DNA from: an uncultured Erysipelotrichaceae bacterium
GTDB taxonomy: Bacteria; Bacillota_I; Bacilli_A; RF39; UBA660
NCBI GenBank assembly: GCA_902798815.1
Contig: CADBYH010000001.1
Coordinates: 5,554-69,553, forward strand
Length of the DNA stretch: 64,000 bases
Direction of reading: 5' to 3'
A program made the position numbers and the translations under genes. The notes beneath the pieces were generated by a model that did not search any database, was not told the DNA's origin, and saw only the letters and a program-made list of their open reading frames with translations. Shown here piece by piece: positions 43,996-52,274 of this stretch; the stretch's first letter is position 1, and every line of letters begins with the position of its first letter.

Positions 43996-44056
43996 TATTG
44001 GTTTTTAAATAAAACATGCTATAACAACCACATATTAATAGAGATAAGAAATATAT

Positions 44057-44572
44057 TTATAATCCATAACTTCTTGTTATCTGATCTATAAATAAATGTG
44101 TTTTAGGAGGATAATAAGTAAGGTGAGTAAATATAATATAACTAATTAATATTAAAGAAATTCCTATTTCCTTTTGGTTAGGAATTTCTTTTTTATTTAA
44201 TAATTTATAACTAACTATTTCAGAAAAAATATAAGTTAAAAACATAATGATTATCGCAATATAAAAATTATGTGGAACAAATATATCTATAATTAAATAA
44301 ATAACTAAATAAAATATAATTCCACAAACTGCAGAAATAGGTATACTAATTATAAAATTATTAGTAGAAATATCTTTCTTCTTATAAATGAAATATTCAA
44401 TTATACTAGATAATAATATACTGGTATAAATTATTTTCATATGTTCCCAAATACTTTCGTTTACAGGAAACATAATACTTGTTATAAAGCAGGGAAATTT
44501 ATCATAAACAAAATGAATTGGAAATGATAAACAAAACATTATTAATATCATTAAAATCTTAATCTTTTTCAT
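44057..44572 (-). CDS. small polytopic membrane protein (possibly DUF6512-like)
   Basis: 171 aa with about 5 TM segments and an ESIWEHMKI motif. Divergent from the LysR operon. Confidence 0.45.
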   Translation of the reverse strand: MKKIKILMILIMFCLSFPIHFVYDKFPCFITSIMFPVNESIWEHMKIIYTSILLSSIIEYFIYKKKDISTNNFIISIPISAVCGIIFYLVIYLIIDIFVPHNFYIAIIIMFLTYIFSEIVSYKLLNKKEIPNQKEIGISLILISYIIFTHLTYYPPKTHLFIDQITRSYGL

Positions 44573-44627
44573 ATTAAAAATATATAAATATTCTAAATAT
44601 AGTATACATAAACTATTTTTATATTAA

Positions 44628-44656
44628 TTGACTTTTATATAAATGTATAATATAAT
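44628..44656 (+). promoter_or_regulatory. near-consensus sigma-A promoter for the LysR / radical-SAM / NADAR-DHH operon
   Basis: TTGACT (44628-44633), a 17-nt spacer, then TATAAT (44651-44656). RBS GAGGGG lies 5-6 nt before the ATG at 44676. Confidence 0.6.
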
Positions 44657-44675
44657 ATGTCGCGAGGGGATAACT

Positions 44676-45569
44676 ATGAATACTGATTATAACTTATATA
44701 AGATATTTCTTTATTTATATGAAGAAAAAAGTATATCGAAAACAGCTAATAAACTATATGTATCACAACCGGCAATTAGTTATAGTTTAAAAGAATTAGA
44801 AAACCAACTAGGATACACATTGTTTTATAGAAATAGTAAAGGAATAGAGCCAACTTTAGAGGCTAAAGAATTATATTCATATATCTCAACTGCCTTTAAT
44901 ATTTTACATGATGCAGAAGAGCATATTAAGAATTTAAATAGTCTAAACATTGGTTGTATAAGAATAGGTACTCCATCACATATCGGAGTATTCTATCTAT
45001 CAAATTATATAGTAGATTTTAGAAAGATATATCCAGGTATTAAATTTGAAATTGTATGTAAATCAACATCAGATTTAGTAGATATGTTAGAAACAAGAAA
45101 ATTAGATATTATAGTTGATACTTTACCAATTAATAGTAAAAAAGAAGTTACTAAGGTTACATTATCAAAATTACAAAACTGTTTTGCATACAATAAAAAC
45201 ATTATGAAAAATGTTGATATTAAAAGTGTTTCTGATTTAAAGAATTATCCATTAATATTACCAAGTGCAACTTCATCAATCAGACTTAAACTTGATGAAT
45301 ATATGGAATCTCAAAATGCAAAATTAATGCCAATTTTAGAGTCTTGGACAACAGAATTGATGGTTGAAATGGTAAGAAAAGGTGTAGGAATTGGATATTT
45401 TATTAAAAACGTTATTGATACTCAAAATGATAAAGAGAATTTTGAAGTAATAACTTTTGATAATGATCTTCCAGCTGTTGATGTATGTTGTGTCTATATT
45501 TCAGACTTCTTAACAACAGCAACAAAAAAATTTGTAGAAATATTAACAAGTGATAAAGTAGGGGAATAG
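44676..45569 (+). CDS. LysR-family transcriptional regulator
   Basis: N-terminal wHTH (LYKIFLYLYEEKSISKTANKLYVSQPAISYSLKELENQLGYTLF) plus a periplasmic-binding-protein-like effector domain. The track start at 44643 would lie inside the promoter. Confidence 0.88.
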   Translation: MNTDYNLYKIFLYLYEEKSISKTANKLYVSQPAISYSLKELENQLGYTLFYRNSKGIEPTLEAKELYSYISTAFNILHDAEEHIKNLNSLNIGCIRIGTPSHIGVFYLSNYIVDFRKIYPGIKFEIVCKSTSDLVDMLETRKLDIIVDTLPINSKKEVTKVTLSKLQNCFAYNKNIMKNVDIKSVSDLKNYPLILPSATSSIRLKLDEYMESQNAKLMPILESWTTELMVEMVRKGVGIGYFIKNVIDTQNDKENFEVITFDNDLPAVDVCCVYISDFLTTATKKFVEILTSDKVGE

Positions 45570-45572
45570 TAT

Positions 45573-47204
45573 ATGATGGATTTTTTATTAAGTGATGAAA
45601 CAAATATCTCAAAAGAAGATTTAGAGACAAGAAGAAAATTATATGATATATTTATGGATTTACCAGAGAACTTTGTATCAAAAATGAGACATCTTCAACC
45701 ACAAGTAGGATGCTTCAATAATTGTAGTTTTTGTAGTAAATTTTCTGTATGTAAAAGTGAGTATTGGCCATTATCTTCATTAAGAAATATAATAAGTGCC
45801 TTAAAATACACATCAAAGAATTATACATCAGATGATTTATTATTAGCTTATGATAGAAAAGAACATAGAATTGGAGTTATCTTTCCATATTTAAATAATG
45901 ATATAGCAGCATACCCTCATTTATATGAATTTATTGATTTATGTTATAGAGAATTAAGTGTAAGAACTAGAATCTCAACAGTAGGATTCTCTAGACACAA
46001 TAAAGTTTTAAATGAAATGCATAAAAAGATATGTTCTAGTGATTTATTATATGCTCTAGGAGGAGTAAGATTATCAATTAGTCAATATGGTAGAGTATGG
46101 GAAGAACAATCTTCAAAAAACTCTTTAGATGATTATTGTAAAGACATAGCTAACTTTTTAACTATTTATAAACCATATTATGATAAATTTGGATCTGGAT
46201 CTAGAAGAATGTGTTGTGAATTAAGATTTAATCCACTAGTGGAAAATAGTAAAGTACTAACTTTTGAACATAATGATAAATTTGTTATCGCAACAAGTAA
46301 TTATTTATACATATCAGAAGATGATAATATAGCTTTTGAAGAAACCTTTATAAAAGATCCTTATGTTCATTCCTTAGAATTAACTACAAAAGGTATTAAT
46401 TTCACTGAATATAATTTACCATTTAAAGTAGATACAAAAGAAGAATTAATAAAATATATTGATGAAAATGAATTAGAAACCGAAAGAAAAGTTGAAGTAT
46501 ATTTATTTACTAATAAAGATGGACTATATTATTCGATAGATCCAAAACTAACAACTGAAGGAAATTTTGGAATTAATATCTATCCTGAAACTGATATACG
46601 TACTAAATCAGGTTATATTATTACAGAAAGATTTCTTTTAAATGCTTTATATAATTTCAAGAAAACTAAAAATCTAGCTTTAAGAGATTCGTATAAAAAC
46701 GCAACATATGAAGATATAGATGAAGTAATAAGTATCTTAAAAGAGTATTCAAATTACTATCAAGAAAAGAATAAATTAGAAAAAAGCAATTATATAATTA
46801 ATCATGTAATTCCAGTATTAGAAGTATATGTAAAAGCATTAAAACTTGCTAATTACAAACCAGAAGTATTCTTTGATAAGAATTTCACTATAGACACTGG
46901 TATGATATGTAATTTAGGAAGAGCAATAAATCTTTTTAAAGGTATAACTAAATTTATAAACGAACCATTAACTCCAATTCATGAAAGAAACTATGGAAGA
47001 CACTGTTCTACAATGAAACAAGAAAACTATGTATGGTTACTTGGATGTGGTTTCCATGATAATATCTTAATTGAAAAATTAGATTTATTTAATACAGCAT
47101 CAATAGAAGGACAAGTATCTATTAAGAAAAAAATCCAAATAGAAGGATTTAATAATAAAATAAGTGAAGAAGAAAAATACTTATATCCAGGAGAAACAGA
47201 ATAA
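45573..47204 (+). CDS. radical SAM-type protein with long uncharacterised C-terminal extension (543 aa)
   Basis: Canonical CxxxCxxC cluster motif in the expected N-terminal context (QPQVGCFNNCSFCS). Plausible downstream core strands are VIFPYLNNDIAAYP, RISTVGFS and VRLSISQYG. About 340 aa after the core have no recognisable motif. Confidence 0.6.
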   Translation: MMDFLLSDETNISKEDLETRRKLYDIFMDLPENFVSKMRHLQPQVGCFNNCSFCSKFSVCKSEYWPLSSLRNIISALKYTSKNYTSDDLLLAYDRKEHRIGVIFPYLNNDIAAYPHLYEFIDLCYRELSVRTRISTVGFSRHNKVLNEMHKKICSSDLLYALGGVRLSISQYGRVWEEQSSKNSLDDYCKDIANFLTIYKPYYDKFGSGSRRMCCELRFNPLVENSKVLTFEHNDKFVIATSNYLYISEDDNIAFEETFIKDPYVHSLELTTKGINFTEYNLPFKVDTKEELIKYIDENELETERKVEVYLFTNKDGLYYSIDPKLTTEGNFGINIYPETDIRTKSGYIITERFLLNALYNFKKTKNLALRDSYKNATYEDIDEVISILKEYSNYYQEKNKLEKSNYIINHVIPVLEVYVKALKLANYKPEVFFDKNFTIDTGMICNLGRAINLFKGITKFINEPLTPIHERNYGRHCSTMKQENYVWLLGCGFHDNILIEKLDLFNTASIEGQVSIKKKIQIEGFNNKISEEEKYLYPGETE

Positions 47205-48487
47205 TGAGTATAGATTTTTATAAAGAATTTGGAGAATTAGGCTATTTAGCAAATTATTCTAATCATGGTTTTTATAAAGATAACGTATACTATAAAACAG
47301 TAGAGCACTTTTATCAAGCAAGTAAGTTTGATAACAAAAAGATTAAAGAAAAAATAATAAATTGTTCTACTCCAAAAGAAGCATCTAATATAGGTAGAGA
47401 TAGAAATAATATTAGAATTGCTAATTTTAAAGATATTAAATTAGATGTAATGTATGAAGGTATTTATTTAAAATTTACTCAAAATAAAGATATTAGATCA
47501 AAGCTTATTGAAACAAGAAATAATCAAATAAGAGAAATGAGCGTTAAAGAATCATTCTGGGGAATAGGTCCTAATCTTGATGGAGAAAACCATATTGGAA
47601 TAATTTTAGAAAAAGTTAGAGATCAAGTAAAAAAAGATGTGCTTAATAATATTATAAATAATTGTAAAAATAAAAAAGTATATATAATTGGTCATCATAA
47701 ACCAGATGCAGATTCTATCTTTTCAGCATATATATTATCTAATATATTAAAAAGTTTAGGAATTGATGCAGTCTTTTCTGTAAGAGATGAAGAATTAGTT
47801 GATAAAGAATTAATAGATGATTACTTGAAAGAAGATTATGAAGTAATAGATGATTATAATGATAAACACTTTATTTTAGTTGATCATAATAATTTGGATG
47901 GAATACCAAAAGAAAATGTTATAGGAGCAATAGACCATCATAGAATTACAAATGATGTAGATGAATTAATAGAAATAGAATATGCTTCATGCTTATTATT
48001 AATATATGATTTGTTTAAAGATATCTATAAATTTGATGAAAAAGAAAAAGAATTAATTGCTTTAAGCGTTTTATCAGATACAGAATATTTAACTAGTTCA
48101 AGATTTACATCAGAAGATCAATCTTTATACAAAGAATTAAATGTTAGTATAAATGAAAATGAATTAAGAAAAAAATATTTCAAAACTACAGATTTCTCAA
48201 ATAATATTAAAGACAATTTATATAAAGATTATAAAGAATATGATTTTCATAATAAACATATAAAAAGAAGTCTAATAAAAAGCTATTCAAAAGATAAAGA
48301 TGAATATTATGATTCATATACAAATAGTATGAAAAGTAATATTATAAATTTATTAATCTGGTGTGATTACGAGAAATTAATAACATATTTTAATTATAAT
48401 GGTATTAATTTAACATATCCTTCGTTCACAACAAGTACTTATTTAATATTAGATTATTTAGAAAAACAAAAATATCTTAGTAAATAA
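47204..48487 (+). CDS. fusion protein: N-terminal NADAR (YbiA-like) domain plus C-terminal DHH/DHHA2 phosphoesterase
   Basis: NADAR blocks: LANYSNHGF, TVEHFYQASKF, PKEASNIGR, VMYEGIYLKFTQN, ESFWGIG..GENHIGIIL. DHH motifs: IIGHHKPDADSIFSAY, LVDHNN, AIDHHR. A DHHA2-like LSDTEYLTSS also follows. Start overlaps the radical-SAM stop (TAATG). Confidence 0.75.
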   Translation: MSIDFYKEFGELGYLANYSNHGFYKDNVYYKTVEHFYQASKFDNKKIKEKIINCSTPKEASNIGRDRNNIRIANFKDIKLDVMYEGIYLKFTQNKDIRSKLIETRNNQIREMSVKESFWGIGPNLDGENHIGIILEKVRDQVKKDVLNNIINNCKNKKVYIIGHHKPDADSIFSAYILSNILKSLGIDAVFSVRDEELVDKELIDDYLKEDYEVIDDYNDKHFILVDHNNLDGIPKENVIGAIDHHRITNDVDELIEIEYASCLLLIYDLFKDIYKFDEKEKELIALSVLSDTEYLTSSRFTSEDQSLYKELNVSINENELRKKYFKTTDFSNNIKDNLYKDYKEYDFHNKHIKRSLIKSYSKDKDEYYDSYTNSMKSNIINLLIWCDYEKLITYFNYNGINLTYPSFTTSTYLILDYLEKQKYLSK

Positions 48488-48642
48488 GATGTTTTTTTTA
48501 TTATATAAAACTTCATAAAAAAATTTTATCTACTTTTATACATATAAATAATTTTTATAAATACTATCAAAAATATATGTTTGATTTATATAATGAATGT
48601 AGATATTATGTTATTAAGAGAACTTTATGAAAAGGTGATTAT

Positions 48643-48822
48643 ATGAATGGGCAAAGTATATATACTTATTTAGATTCTAAAAAGATATATTTTATTTCTA
48701 AAAGAGGAAAATATATGTTAATAGAAAAAAATAATACTAAAAAAGTATTAAGTTTAGTATCAAGAAATACAGTAGTAATTGATAAAAATAATGGTATTTT
48801 GTTATTTCCAAATGACAAGTAA
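48643..48822 (+). CDS. unannotated small ORF (59 aa), below the ORF-track cutoff
   Basis: ATG at 48643 preceded by RBS AAAGGTGA at a 6-nt spacing. Encodes MNGQSIYTYLDSKKIYFISKRGKYMLIEKNNTKKVLSLVSRNTVVIDKNNGILLFPNDK. Followed by a short hairpin AAAGAG/CTCTTT and a T-run. Confidence 0.4.
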   Translation: MNGQSIYTYLDSKKIYFISKRGKYMLIEKNNTKKVLSLVSRNTVVIDKNNGILLFPNDK

Positions 48823-48852
48823 AAAGAGTTTATCTCTTTTTTTTTATATCGA

Positions 48853-48881
48853 TTGACTAATTTGCATATTTTTTTTATAAT
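48853..48881 (+). promoter_or_regulatory. near-consensus sigma-A promoter for the second DUF6273-like gene
   Basis: TTGACT (48853-48858), a 17-nt spacer, then TATAAT (48876-48881), about 30 nt before the ATG at 48914. Confidence 0.6.
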
Positions 48882-48913
48882 TGTACTAGTAGATAAGGCA
48901 GGAGAGACGTACT

Positions 48914-50170
48914 ATGAAAAAGAGAATGAAGAAAAAAGATGTACAAATACTTTTGTTTATTCTAATAGCATTTGTTTCATTAAGTATAAGTTATGCTGCT
49001 ATTACAAGCATTATTTTAACAATTAATGGTACTGCAAGTGCAGAGGCAGATGATATAAATTTTAAAGTTCATTTTGATAGATCTGTAAGTCCTACTATGA
49101 CCGTAAATAAAGGTAGCGCAGAGATAGACGAATATGATGATAAGATTGCTCATTTTAATGTTAATAATCTTGAAGGTACAGGAGACTCTGCAACAGCTGA
49201 ATACACAGTAATAAATGAATCAAATGGAATAGGAGCACGTATTAATTTAGATTTAACAAATACAAATACAGAATATTTTAGAGTAACAGAAACAATAGAT
49301 GATATAGAACTACAAGCAGGAGATACAACAAAAGTAAGAATAGTTGTAGAATTAATAAAAGAGCCAACCAATCATGAAGAAACAACAGAAATTATTGGTA
49401 CATTAACTGCAAGAGCGGTACAAAATGGATCTGCAAATTCATCAGTAAGCGATACAGTAACAGGACATAAACCAAATTACTTTGCAACAGATTCATGGAG
49501 TACAATTCAGACAAACATAAGAAATAATAATATAGATAGATATAATATAGGAGATACAAAAACTGTAAGTATAGACGGAAATGATTACACAGTTAGAGTA
49601 TCAAACAAATCAACTGCATCAAATTGTAGTAATGCCAATTACTCCCAAACAGCATGTGGATTCGTAGTAGAATTTACTGGAGCAGTTGCAAACTCTCCAA
49701 TGTATGGTAATTCAATAGAAACAGCATCTAATAATATAGGATATCAATCAACGTTAGTATATTCTTATCTTGAAAACACACTTTATAATAAACTTCCTGA
49801 AGATTTACAAAATGTAATATCAAATACAAGACTTATTGAAAATCATGTTGATCAATTAGATGTTAGAGTATATATTTTATCTGCAAAAGAAGTATTTAAT
49901 TATGATCAATCAAGTGAGAATGATCTAAGTACACAACTAGATTATTATTCAGAGAATGAAGTATCTGTTCCAAGTAATGATCCAAATACAGTAAACAACA
50001 ATAGATTCACAATAAAAACTTCTATAGATGACAATAGAATATATTGGTGGTTAAGATCACCATATAAAGATGATAACCAAAGTTTTCAGCAAGTAACAGA
50101 TGGAGGATATTTATATAAGATGTATTCACATTATAATGATTATGTTTCTCCAGCATTCAGAATATCTTAA
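48914..50170 (+). CDS. secreted/anchored protein with C-terminal DUF6273-like domain (paralog of 42070-43995)
   Basis: N-terminal signal/anchor, then a beta-rich domain (INFKVHFD..., AEYTVINESNG...). The C-terminal blocks DSWSTIQTNI, ACGFVVEF, LYNKLPEDLQNVISNTR, WWLRS and SPAFRI parallel those of ORF 42070. Confidence 0.6.
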   Translation: MKKRMKKKDVQILLFILIAFVSLSISYAAITSIILTINGTASAEADDINFKVHFDRSVSPTMTVNKGSAEIDEYDDKIAHFNVNNLEGTGDSATAEYTVINESNGIGARINLDLTNTNTEYFRVTETIDDIELQAGDTTKVRIVVELIKEPTNHEETTEIIGTLTARAVQNGSANSSVSDTVTGHKPNYFATDSWSTIQTNIRNNNIDRYNIGDTKTVSIDGNDYTVRVSNKSTASNCSNANYSQTACGFVVEFTGAVANSPMYGNSIETASNNIGYQSTLVYSYLENTLYNKLPEDLQNVISNTRLIENHVDQLDVRVYILSAKEVFNYDQSSENDLSTQLDYYSENEVSVPSNDPNTVNNNRFTIKTSIDDNRIYWWLRSPYKDDNQSFQQVTDGGYLYKMYSHYNDYVSPAFRIS

Positions 50171-50266: not shown

Positions 50267-50830
50267 ATGTATGATTATATTATAGGTAAAATTACATATA
50301 TAAAAAATAATGCTATTGTAGTAGAAAATAATGGTATAGGTTATTTAGTATATGTATCTAATCCATACTCGTTTGAATTAAATAAAGAATATAAAGTATA
50401 TATATATCAACATATAACAGAAGATGAGAATACATTATATGGTTTTAAAACAATTGAAGAAAAAGAACTATTCTTAAAACTAATTAGTGTAAAAGGATTA
50501 GGATGTAAAATGACTCTTCCTATATTAGCATTAGGTGAGATTGACGGAATAATGGATGCTATCGAAAGAGAAAATATATTATATTTGAAAAAATTTCCAA
50601 AAATTGGAGATAAATTAGCAAGACAAATGGTTCTAGATTTAAAAGGTAAATTAGAATTTATTGGAGTAGGAATAAGTGATGATTCTAATAAGGTGGAAGA
50701 AGAATTAAAAGAAGCATTACTTGCTTTAGGATATAAAGAAAAAGAAATAAAAAATGTAATAAACCAAGTAAATAAAAATAATCCAGTTGAAGATCAAATA
50801 AAAGAAGCATTAAAATTAATGCTTAGATAG
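50267..50830 (+). CDS. ruvA: Holliday junction branch migration complex subunit RuvA
   Basis: MYDYIIGKI...VVENNGIGY OB-fold N-terminus and HhH motifs (LISVKGLGCKMTL, LKKFPKIGDKLARQM). Confidence 0.9.
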   Translation: MYDYIIGKITYIKNNAIVVENNGIGYLVYVSNPYSFELNKEYKVYIYQHITEDENTLYGFKTIEEKELFLKLISVKGLGCKMTLPILALGEIDGIMDAIERENILYLKKFPKIGDKLARQMVLDLKGKLEFIGVGISDDSNKVEEELKEALLALGYKEKEIKNVINQVNKNNPVEDQIKEALKLMLR

Positions 50831-50839
50831 GAGACTTAT

Positions 50840-51271
50840 ATGAATAAAAAAGCATTTATAGTAATAGCGATAATAATTATAATAGTAATATTTTTATTAG
50901 GTTTCTTTAGAAAACCACAAATTATCAAAATAGAAAAAGGATTTAATAAACAATTAGAAGAAAAAGGAGATATTTATTATTATTCAATAATAACTTCTAA
51001 AAAACAATATAATGTTTTAGTAAGAGAACCTAAGAATAATATTAATTTTAATAAGTATAATTATATTCTTATGGAAATAGATAGAGGAGCAGCATGTGAT
51101 GCTGATATCGATATTACAGATGTTGTTGAGAAGAATAACGAATTAATTATTGAATATAAATTATCAAATATTGCATCAGGATGTATGAGATCAACTCCAA
51201 GATACTATGCAATACCAATAGATAAAAAAATTCATACAAATATAAATGTAAAACTAACTGAAGTAAGGTGA
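50840..51271 (+). CDS. membrane-anchored hypothetical protein inserted between ruvA and ruvB
   Basis: 143 aa with an N-terminal TM helix. No motif recognised. Tightly packed: 9 nt after ruvA and 7 nt before ruvB. Confidence 0.5.
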
Positions 51272-51278
51272 TAATTTC

Positions 51279-52274
51279 ATGGAAGAAAACATTATAAGAA
51301 ATATAACAATAGATGATGATAATACATTAGATAATACTATTAGACCAGAAACGATTGATGAGTACGTAGGACAAACTGATGTTAAAGAAAATATCAGAGT
51401 CTTTGTAAGTGCAGCAAAAATGAGAAAAGAATCTCTCGACCACGTATTATTATATGGTCCACCAGGTCTTGGAAAAACAACCCTTGCATATATTATTGCT
51501 CACGAATTAGGAACAAATATTAAAACAGCAAGTGGACCTAGTATTGAAAAAAGTGGAGATCTAGCAGCAATTCTTTCATCATTAGAACCAGGAGATGTAT
51601 TATTTATTGATGAAATTCATAGAATGCCAAGATATATAGAAGAGATATTATATCCTGCTATGGAAGATTTTTCTTTAGATATTATTGTAGGTAGTGAAGG
51701 AAATAGTAGAAATATTAAAATTGATTTGCCACCATTTACTTTAGTAGGTGCAACAACACGAGCAGGAGATTTATCATCACCATTAAGAGACAGATTTGGG
51801 ATTGTTTCAAAATTACAGTTTTATACAATAGAGGAACTAACAGATATAATCAAAAGAACATCTCGTGTATTAGATATGCCAATTACAAATGAGGCAGCAA
51901 TAGAACTAGCAACAAGAAGTAGAGGAACACCAAGAATTGCTAATAGACTATTTAAAAGAGTAAGAGACTTCGCAATGGTAGATAAAAGTAATGAAATAAC
52001 TAAAACAATTACTAAAAAAGCTTTAGATAGATTGAAAGTAGATAAAATAGGTTTAGATAATACTGATAGGGAATTATTACTCGCAATAATAAATAGATTT
52101 AACGGAGGACCAGTTGGAATAGATGCCTTATCAAGTTCTATTGGAGAAGAAGTAACTACAATTGAAGATGTGTATGAACCATACTTATTACAAATAGGTC
52201 TATTAAAAAGAACATCTCGTGGAAGAGTAGCAACAGATAAAGCATATGAAGTATTAGGAATAGAAAAGCAATAA
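51279..52274 (+). CDS. ruvB: Holliday junction branch migration DNA helicase RuvB
   Basis: AAA+ Walker [10 protein letters not shown], Walker B LFIDEIH, sensor [15 protein letters not shown]. Confidence 0.97.

Follow-up and report, generated by a model that had tools for sequence, protein, structure and literature searches.

We analyzed a 64,000-nucleotide stretch of the genome of an uncultured Erysipelotrichaceae bacterium (GTDB lineage Bacteria; Bacillota_I; Bacilli_A; RF39; UBA660; GenBank assembly GCA_902798815.1, contig CADBYH010000001.1, positions 5,554 to 69,553), here called the window, with attention to a cassette of three genes on its forward strand. The cassette opens with the gene for a LysR-type transcription regulator, continues with that for an orphan enzyme resembling those of the radical S-adenosylmethionine (radical-SAM) class and closes with that for a protein in which a NADAR domain is joined to a DHH/DHHA2-like phosphoesterase (Table 1). 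An earlier note, made from the sequence of the window alone, had described one polypeptide carrying both domains, and Pfam matches above cut-off to each bear this out. The genomic context was not part of that note: the two intact, fused domains are encoded by a gene strictly linked to the radical-SAM gene, and relatives of the radical-SAM protein are fused to NADAR or NUDIX domains or lie next to genes for NADAR, NUDIX and CYTH proteins and nucleotide kinases.

The fusion gene and its cassette

Linkage between the last two genes of the cassette is tight, the start codon of the fusion gene sharing one base with the stop codon of the radical-SAM gene (TAATG, 47202-47206). Of 41 related genomes, nine have this NADAR gene; the same nine, and no others, have the radical-SAM gene, always adjacent to it. 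Within the genus, the cassette occurs in nine of 25 genomes, with both genes together in nine of nine. Across about 30 related loci, only the LysR, radical-SAM and NADAR(-DHH) genes are conserved and the flanks vary. In 28 of 30 of these loci, the LysR gene immediately precedes the radical-SAM gene, at 65-90% identity.

The fusion is a real, conserved and uncharacterized two-domain protein. Both domains are retained, at equal length, in more than 120 protein clusters (55-98% identity) from many assemblies of uncultured gut Bacilli, and the region is present in sequencing runs of 12 studies, chiefly of bovine and goat gut. The domain junction at 47640-47700, where the earlier note had seen a risk of artefact, is spanned without indels by contigs of three other studies (X3, 47069-48352; X10, 47069-47752; X2, 47463-47708). 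An assembly join of two genes is excluded by these independent metagenome contigs together with the clusters that keep the fusion. In databases the protein goes under no name but "DUF1768 domain-containing protein" or "ribA/ribD-fused uncharacterized protein," and the claim of an uncharacterized fusion also stands.

An AlphaFold model built from 31 homologues is of high confidence (predicted local distance difference test [pLDDT], 92.8; predicted template modelling score [pTM], 0.86), and both domains look catalytically competent from their residues. All the motifs first quoted for the protein are present, namely EHFYQASKF (amino acids [aa] 34-42), PKEASNIGR (aa 57-65), VMYEGIYLKFTQN (aa 82-94) and FWGIGPNLDGENHIG (aa 118-132) in the NADAR part and GHHKPDADS (aa 163-171), VDHN (aa 226-229), DHH (aa 244-246) and LSDTEYLTS (aa 290-298) in the DHH part; the one correction is that four residues, not two, separate the FWGIG and GENHIG blocks. 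No terminator-like site was found 3' of the fusion gene.

Table 1. Features of the cassette, its flanks and related genes elsewhere; unless a locus is named, coordinates are those of the window
Feature	Position	Strand	Remarks
LysR-type transcription regulator, first gene of the cassette	44643..45569	+	Pfam HTH_1 and LysR_substrate
Promoter-like site, TTGACT-17 nt-TATAAT	44628..44656	+	11/12 matches; 5' of the likely true LysR start
Orphan radical-SAM-like enzyme	45573..47204	+	543 aa; CX3CX2C at C47/C51/C54; structure search
NADAR-DHH/DHHA2-like fusion gene	47204..48487	+	427 aa; open reading frame call, profile matches, AlphaFold model
NADAR domain, YbiA subfamily type	47234..47629	+	aa 11-142; Pfam and TIGR02464
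DHH catalytic domain	47675..48154	+	aa 158 to ~317; Pfam DHH
DHHA2-like C-terminal domain	48155..48484	+	aa ~318-427; assigned from fold alone
Conserved small open reading frame 3' of the cassette	48643..48822	+	59 aa; clade-specific
Gene after the cassette, DUF6273 domain	48914-50170	+	Pfam E 1e-14
CBS-domain family II pyrophosphatase	L019:601-2238 (own genome, contig C10)		545 aa; SRKK intact
Stand-alone DHH paralogue cluster	L018:6265-9695 (genome G006)		296 aa; coupled translationally to a DUF402 gene, then DUF2779/Cas4-like and NUDIX

The NADAR and DHH halves

By profile and residue evidence, the N-terminal half belongs to the NADAR superfamily and, within it, to the YbiA subfamily. Pfam NADAR (PF08719) matches with an E value of 7e-30 (104.9 bits against a cut-off of 35.1), and the NCBIfam model of the YbiA-type N-glycosidase domain, TIGR02464, scores 99.9 bits against 73.7. 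The domain matches Escherichia coli YbiA (2b3w) in sequence at E 4e-20, and Foldseek places this part of the model on YbiA and on the NADAR protein of P. nicotianae (8bau). Seven residues invariant among the 31 sequences of the fusion family, E34, K41, R65, K79, E111, E116 and W119, align, respectively, to E43, K50, R79, R93, E125, D130 and W133 of the P. nicotianae protein, which are its ADP-ribose-contacting and catalytic residues (PMC11543638). Position E125 of that protein defines the subfamilies, with Glu in the YbiA subfamily and Asp in the DarT-associated one (PMC11543638), and the fusion protein has the YbiA-type Glu (E111). A check of the catalytic residues thus finds this Glu, the Lys and the ribose- and phosphate-contacting residues all kept. 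The setting is nevertheless unlike that of YbiA, with which the N-terminal 150 aa share fold and sequence family: here, NADAR shares its polypeptide with a DHH phosphoesterase and has a linked radical-SAM enzyme as partner, in a host lineage in which searches for GTP cyclohydrolase II and lumazine synthase detected no riboflavin pathway, and there is no ADP-ribosyltransferase partner.

The second half is, judged by its profile match and motifs, a member of the DHH phosphoesterase superfamily. Pfam DHH (PF01368) covers aa 158-283 (E 1e-12; 48.8 bits against a cut-off of 28.1), and motifs I-IV (DxD, D, DHH, D) are present. H164, D168, D170, D227, D244, H245, H246 and D292 are invariant in the fusion family and align to the corresponding residues of the Mn-dependent family II pyrophosphatase PpaC of B. 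subtilis (h9, d13, d15, the Asp of VDHN, the DHH triad and the Asp of SD). For the C-terminal domain, Pfam DHHA2 gives no match in the fusion protein at E 0.01. In Foldseek, the model aligns over ~268 columns to family II pyrophosphatases of full length (1k23, 1wpm and others; E ~1e-14), far more than the ~183 columns of the N-terminal core alone, and we call the domain DHHA2-like because of this fold and not because of a Pfam match. The DHHA2-like assignment in the earlier note is borne out by the pyrophosphatase fold, though not by the Pfam family itself. Invariant residues in or near this domain are R300, K344, Y346, R355, W386, S411 and T412, of which K344 is the counterpart, in the alignment, of the DAKEF-motif Lys in PpaC. 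Compared with PpaC, then, the metal-binding His and Asp residues and the C-domain Lys are all kept.

Likeness to a pyrophosphatase does not extend to membership, and here only part of the description "family-II-pyrophosphatase-like," that of fold and metal site, has held. The equivalog model of the family, PRK05427 (NF003877), covers aa 157-357 with 72.8 bits against a cut-off of 283. There is no conserved Arg or Lys in the last 30 residues, and hence no SRKK-type basic pair; a conserved TTST/T-ST stretch (409-412) lies at the same distance from the C terminus as SRKK does in the CBS-domain pyrophosphatase of the same genome and would occupy the equivalent place, a correspondence of position rather than of superposition. 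That CBS-domain enzyme is likely the housekeeping pyrophosphatase of the organism, whose genome also gives a family I pyrophosphatase match. Because the score falls far below the cut-off, the SRKK-type pair is missing and a separate CBS-pyrophosphatase is present, we do not regard the DHH half as the housekeeping pyrophosphatase. With the lack of a Pfam DHHA2 match and the T-ST stretch in place of SRKK, the same observations indicate that its substrate is probably not free inorganic pyrophosphate.

A stand-alone DHH paralogue (~295 aa) in the same gut Bacilli shares 41% identity with the C-terminal 280 aa of the fusion protein, and certain NADAR-DHH fusions are 55-57% identical to it. It differs in being unfused and in having, in another genome of the genus (G006), DUF402, NUDIX and DUF2779 genes as neighbors rather than a radical-SAM gene; the G006 cluster may be a separate nucleotide-phosphohydrolase cluster. 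In two loci from mouse-gut metagenome-assembled genomes (L044:7001-7900 and L045:7001-7970), the DHH half of the fusion has decayed and ends before the C-terminal domain, with GPKILGIDA in place of GH..PD.DS and LVNSN or LVNCE in place of VDHN, a pattern that indicates relaxed selection on the phosphatase half.

The radical-SAM partner, its relatives and the flanks

Searches of Pfam, NCBIfam, PADLOC and the PDB sequences gave no match to the 543-aa protein encoded upstream of the fusion. Its assignment as a radical-SAM enzyme rests on the CX3CX2C motif and on the consistency of the structural matches, whose Z scores are middling. C47, C51 and C54 do not vary among close relatives, and their conservation among distant ones is 90% or more. 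With a model of pLDDT 82.8, exhaustive structure comparison returned radical-SAM enzymes as 24 of 24 top matches (Z 5.7-8.8); Foldseek gave no match to the same model at E <= 0.001, and the list came only from the exhaustive aligner. The top structural neighbors include the peptide-modifying enzymes EpeE (Z 8.8), SkfB, SuiB and PqqE and the nucleotide enzymes viperin (Z 8.0 over 216 residues) and MoaA, and OxsB (Z 5.4) and AbmM (Z 6.6) are within the match list. Pfam PF04055 does not match the window protein and matches four of 68 relatives weakly (E ~1e-4, under cut-off). The protein has a large inserted beta-rich and helical region, and no second conserved Cys cluster of the SPASM or twitch type was found across the family. 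A protein atlas returned only "hypothetical protein" clusters and a weak phage radical-SAM lead (0.92). Prediction of a complex between the radical-SAM protein and the NADAR domain scored 0.02, which we use as evidence neither way.

More is learned from distant relatives. When 1.84 billion representative proteins were searched with a profile, no more than 206 members of the family came up. Among 68 full-length distant members, four are fused to NADAR (one C-terminally, three N-terminally) and one to NUDIX. Neighborhoods were counted as 92 non-redundant open reading frames within two genes, from 38 metagenome loci of distant members; among them are 14 thymidylate-kinase-like, seven NADAR, seven GreA/GreB-like and four NUDIX proteins and two deoxynucleoside kinases. 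These neighborhoods are enriched in nucleotide functions, with counts that are not independent, the loci being partly kin. GreA/GreB-family (Rnk-like) genes directly adjoin distant radical-SAM members at L071:7481-7966 and L079:10076-10537, and the Gre neighbors suggest that the product of the pathway is linked to RNA polymerase. One distant relative, P0250 (548 aa), has lost the CX3CX2C cysteines (GSLHKCKENND) and may be a catalytically dead paralogue.

Exchange of the phosphate-chain enzyme is apparent in loci closer to the window. In five of them (L047-L050 and L054), the NADAR gene stands alone and encodes 147 aa. Four of the five, L047-L050, have instead a CYTH-family gene (TIGR00318, E 8e-13, under cut-off; PDB 1yem and 2dc4) and a dTMP-kinase-like gene, and in the fifth, L054, a GreA-like gene follows downstream in place of both; neither a CYTH gene nor a dTMP-kinase-like gene is found in any DHH-fusion locus. 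When the radical-SAM proteins are placed in a maximum-likelihood tree, two CYTH-plus-kinase loci are nested within the fusion clade, and branches with strong support require the fusion label to have changed three times or more. As CYTH plus kinase and the DHH fusion are mutually exclusive and the label has changed repeatedly in the tree, we read the phosphate-chain enzyme as a recurrent, exchangeable slot, in which one module has repeatedly been replaced by another.

At the head of the cassette, homologous LysR genes start at residues MNTDY, and the true start of the window's LysR gene is probably Met12, at ~44676, 11 codons past the listed start. The promoter-like site overlaps the listed start; since such sites occur in the region at a total expected by chance, it is a weak pointer only. 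Downstream, the small open reading frame has the pattern YTY.SAKKIYF...LIEK...SLVSRNTVVISK.NGILLFP and lies at the same place in 11 related loci besides the window, at 39-60% identity, two of them NADAR-only loci. Its length varies from 55 to 70 aa across loci with indels that are multiples of three. Neither Pfam nor Rfam gives a match to it, and Rfam found nothing over 44000-49200 as a whole; cassettes at a greater distance yielded no such frame. Farther 3', the list of open reading frames places a 143-aa frame with an N-terminal hydrophobic stretch between RuvA-like and RuvB-like ones (50267-52274, +).

Function of the cassette

On balance, we consider it probable that the 427-aa protein is a bifunctional hydrolase and the downstream partner of the radical-SAM enzyme in a LysR-headed three-gene cassette. 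The radical-SAM enzyme would act on a nucleotide-type molecule (a nucleoside mono-, di- or triphosphate or a riboside linked to a nucleoside diphosphate), altering or using a phosphorylated N-riboside. The DHH/DHHA2-like half, with its two-metal site, would take off the phosphate or pyrophosphate part, and the NADAR half would cut the N-glycosidic bond to give a free, possibly modified, base and a sugar that may be modified too, with no order set between the two hydrolytic steps. The nucleotide nature of the substrate and both hydrolytic reactions are what we infer from the domains and their neighbors. The outcome could be the making of a product, the clearing or recycling of a by-product or the protection of the producer. 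A nucleotide-centred pathway is the most economical mechanism, and the cassette suggests a pathway, not described so far, in which a nucleotide is remodelled or dismantled. The idea in the earlier note of two sequential steps on one substrate likewise survives as the most economical reading, the substrate being a phosphorylated N-riboside; its example of an ADP-ribosyl adduct finds no contextual support, with only LysR and radical-SAM genes conserved beside the fusion and no ADP-ribosyltransferase gene adjacent.

The setting of the stand-alone DHH paralogue, by DUF402 and NUDIX genes, is again one of nucleotide phosphohydrolases and supports such a pathway. Several observations pull the other way. 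The ~30 related loci are kin, and counts drawn from them overstate independence. Assignment of the partner comes from a Cys motif and Z scores of 8.8 at best, with peptide-modifying enzymes standing beside viperin and MoaA among its top neighbors. A LysR regulator would be as much at home in a catabolic or salvage operon as in one for biosynthesis, and no kinase gene is present in the cassette of the window itself. Since it is decayed and shortened in the two mouse-gut loci, the phosphatase half can be dispensable, and an exchangeable slot does not prove that the same reaction is performed, because CYTH proteins can be cyclases.

Known systems offer partial parallels. Viperin and the prokaryotic viperins (pVip) resemble the cassette relatives in the pairing of a radical-SAM enzyme with thymidylate-kinase-family genes and in a shared core fold. 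They are distinct from the 543-aa protein, which has no detectable sequence relationship to them and an inserted region, and a NADAR protein, the constant partner here, is not described for viperins. The pathways to oxetanocin A (OxsB-OxsA) and albomycin (AbmM) pair a radical-SAM enzyme, which alters the sugar moiety of a phosphorylated nucleoside, with a phosphohydrolase or kinase of their own; OxsA is an HD-domain phosphohydrolase, of a family other than DHH. To our knowledge, neither pathway has an N-glycosidase step or detectable homology to the cassette beyond the radical-SAM core. In a limited search, we found no literature on NADAR paired with radical SAM, DHH or viperin, which does not prove absence.

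For the biological role, the serious alternative is a viperin-type anti-phage or conflict system, one that overlaps with the proposed nucleotide pathway in its chemistry. The radical-SAM enzyme would make a toxic nucleotide analogue, such as a chain terminator, which the NADAR-DHH protein would destroy or limit, protecting the producer. We hold this to be rather unlikely. Relatives adjoin nucleotide kinases, as viperin does CMPK2, but the window's version has neither a kinase nor a Gre gene, the latter being of interest because Gre-like neighbors could rescue stalled RNA polymerase. The patchy distribution within the genus, the unconserved flanks and the place of viperin among the top structural matches would fit; the highly conserved LysR gene at the head of the cassette is more typical of metabolic operons, and no defense genes were identified adjoining it. 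The NADAR part matches the defense-associated profiles NF053876 (E 5e-18) and PADLOC PDC-M42C (E 7e-18), but the scores to the defense NADAR models fall well short of cut-off (65 against 240 bits), and of the PDC-M42 system only this part is matched, the radical-SAM protein and the downstream protein matching nothing in PADLOC.

Other explanations depart further from a nucleotide-remodelling pathway. NADAR might strip ADP-ribosyl from a modified DNA or RNA base, with the DHH half then splitting the released ADP-ribose, a scheme to which NUDIX lends some color, since it replaces DHH in some relatives and classically cleaves ADP-ribose. We think it improbable: no DarT-type or other ADP-ribosyltransferase gene is found in or adjoining the ~30 cassettes, the subfamily position holds the YbiA-type Glu rather than the DarT-associated Asp, and the obligatory radical-SAM partner is given no role. 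Identity as a DarT antitoxin (DarT-NADAR, DarTG1) was rejected, there being no adjacent DarT-type gene. Less probable again is that the radical-SAM enzyme matures a ribosomally synthesized and post-translationally modified peptide encoded by the downstream small open reading frame, with the NADAR-DHH protein unrelated to that function. Its best structural matches are peptide-modifying, and the frame follows the cassette in 12 loci including the window; it is confined to one shallow clade, however, the SPASM/twitch-type Cys cluster is missing, and a peptide substrate accounts neither for fusion to NADAR and NUDIX nor for the neighboring kinases. We give the least credence to a housekeeping role, in which a YbiA-type enzyme that clears reactive riboflavin intermediates has been fused by chance to the cell's inorganic pyrophosphatase. 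TIGR02464, named "riboflavin biosynthesis intermediates N-glycosidase," is above cut-off and the structures that match best are family II pyrophosphatases, but in the window's genome (76% complete) neither GTP cyclohydrolase II nor lumazine synthase was found, nor was lumazine synthase in five other cassette genomes (90-96% complete), and the fusion is missing in most genomes of the genus. Both riboflavin damage control and the housekeeping pyrophosphatase were rejected on these grounds, together with the separate SRKK-bearing CBS-pyrophosphatase and the low score against the pyrophosphatase model.

A more specific form of the nucleotide pathway is less probable than the general one. The unnamed radical-SAM family might make a new modified nucleotide, which NADAR-DHH would tailor to a free modified base or sugar serving as a signal, antimetabolite or antiviral, with the phosphate slot filled interchangeably by DHH/DHHA2, CYTH plus kinase or NUDIX.

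We know of only two jobs for NADAR enzymes, the clearing of riboflavin by-products and the reversal of base ADP-ribosylation. The cassette is a third, strictly conserved setting, in which a pyrophosphatase-like domain is attached to NADAR and the invariable partner is a radical-SAM family that profile libraries do not recognize. New here are the DHH/DHHA2 fusion variant, the analysis of its active sites and its mutual exclusivity with CYTH plus kinase, and this natural swap is a ready-made comparative experiment. Radical-SAM enzymes with nucleotide kinases or phosphohydrolases have repeatedly made bioactive nucleotide analogues, among them the products of viperin and oxetanocin. Because such pairings have done so repeatedly, the cassette is a small, testable candidate for new nucleotide chemistry, and this candidate chemistry sits in abundant, uncultured bacteria of the gut and rumen.

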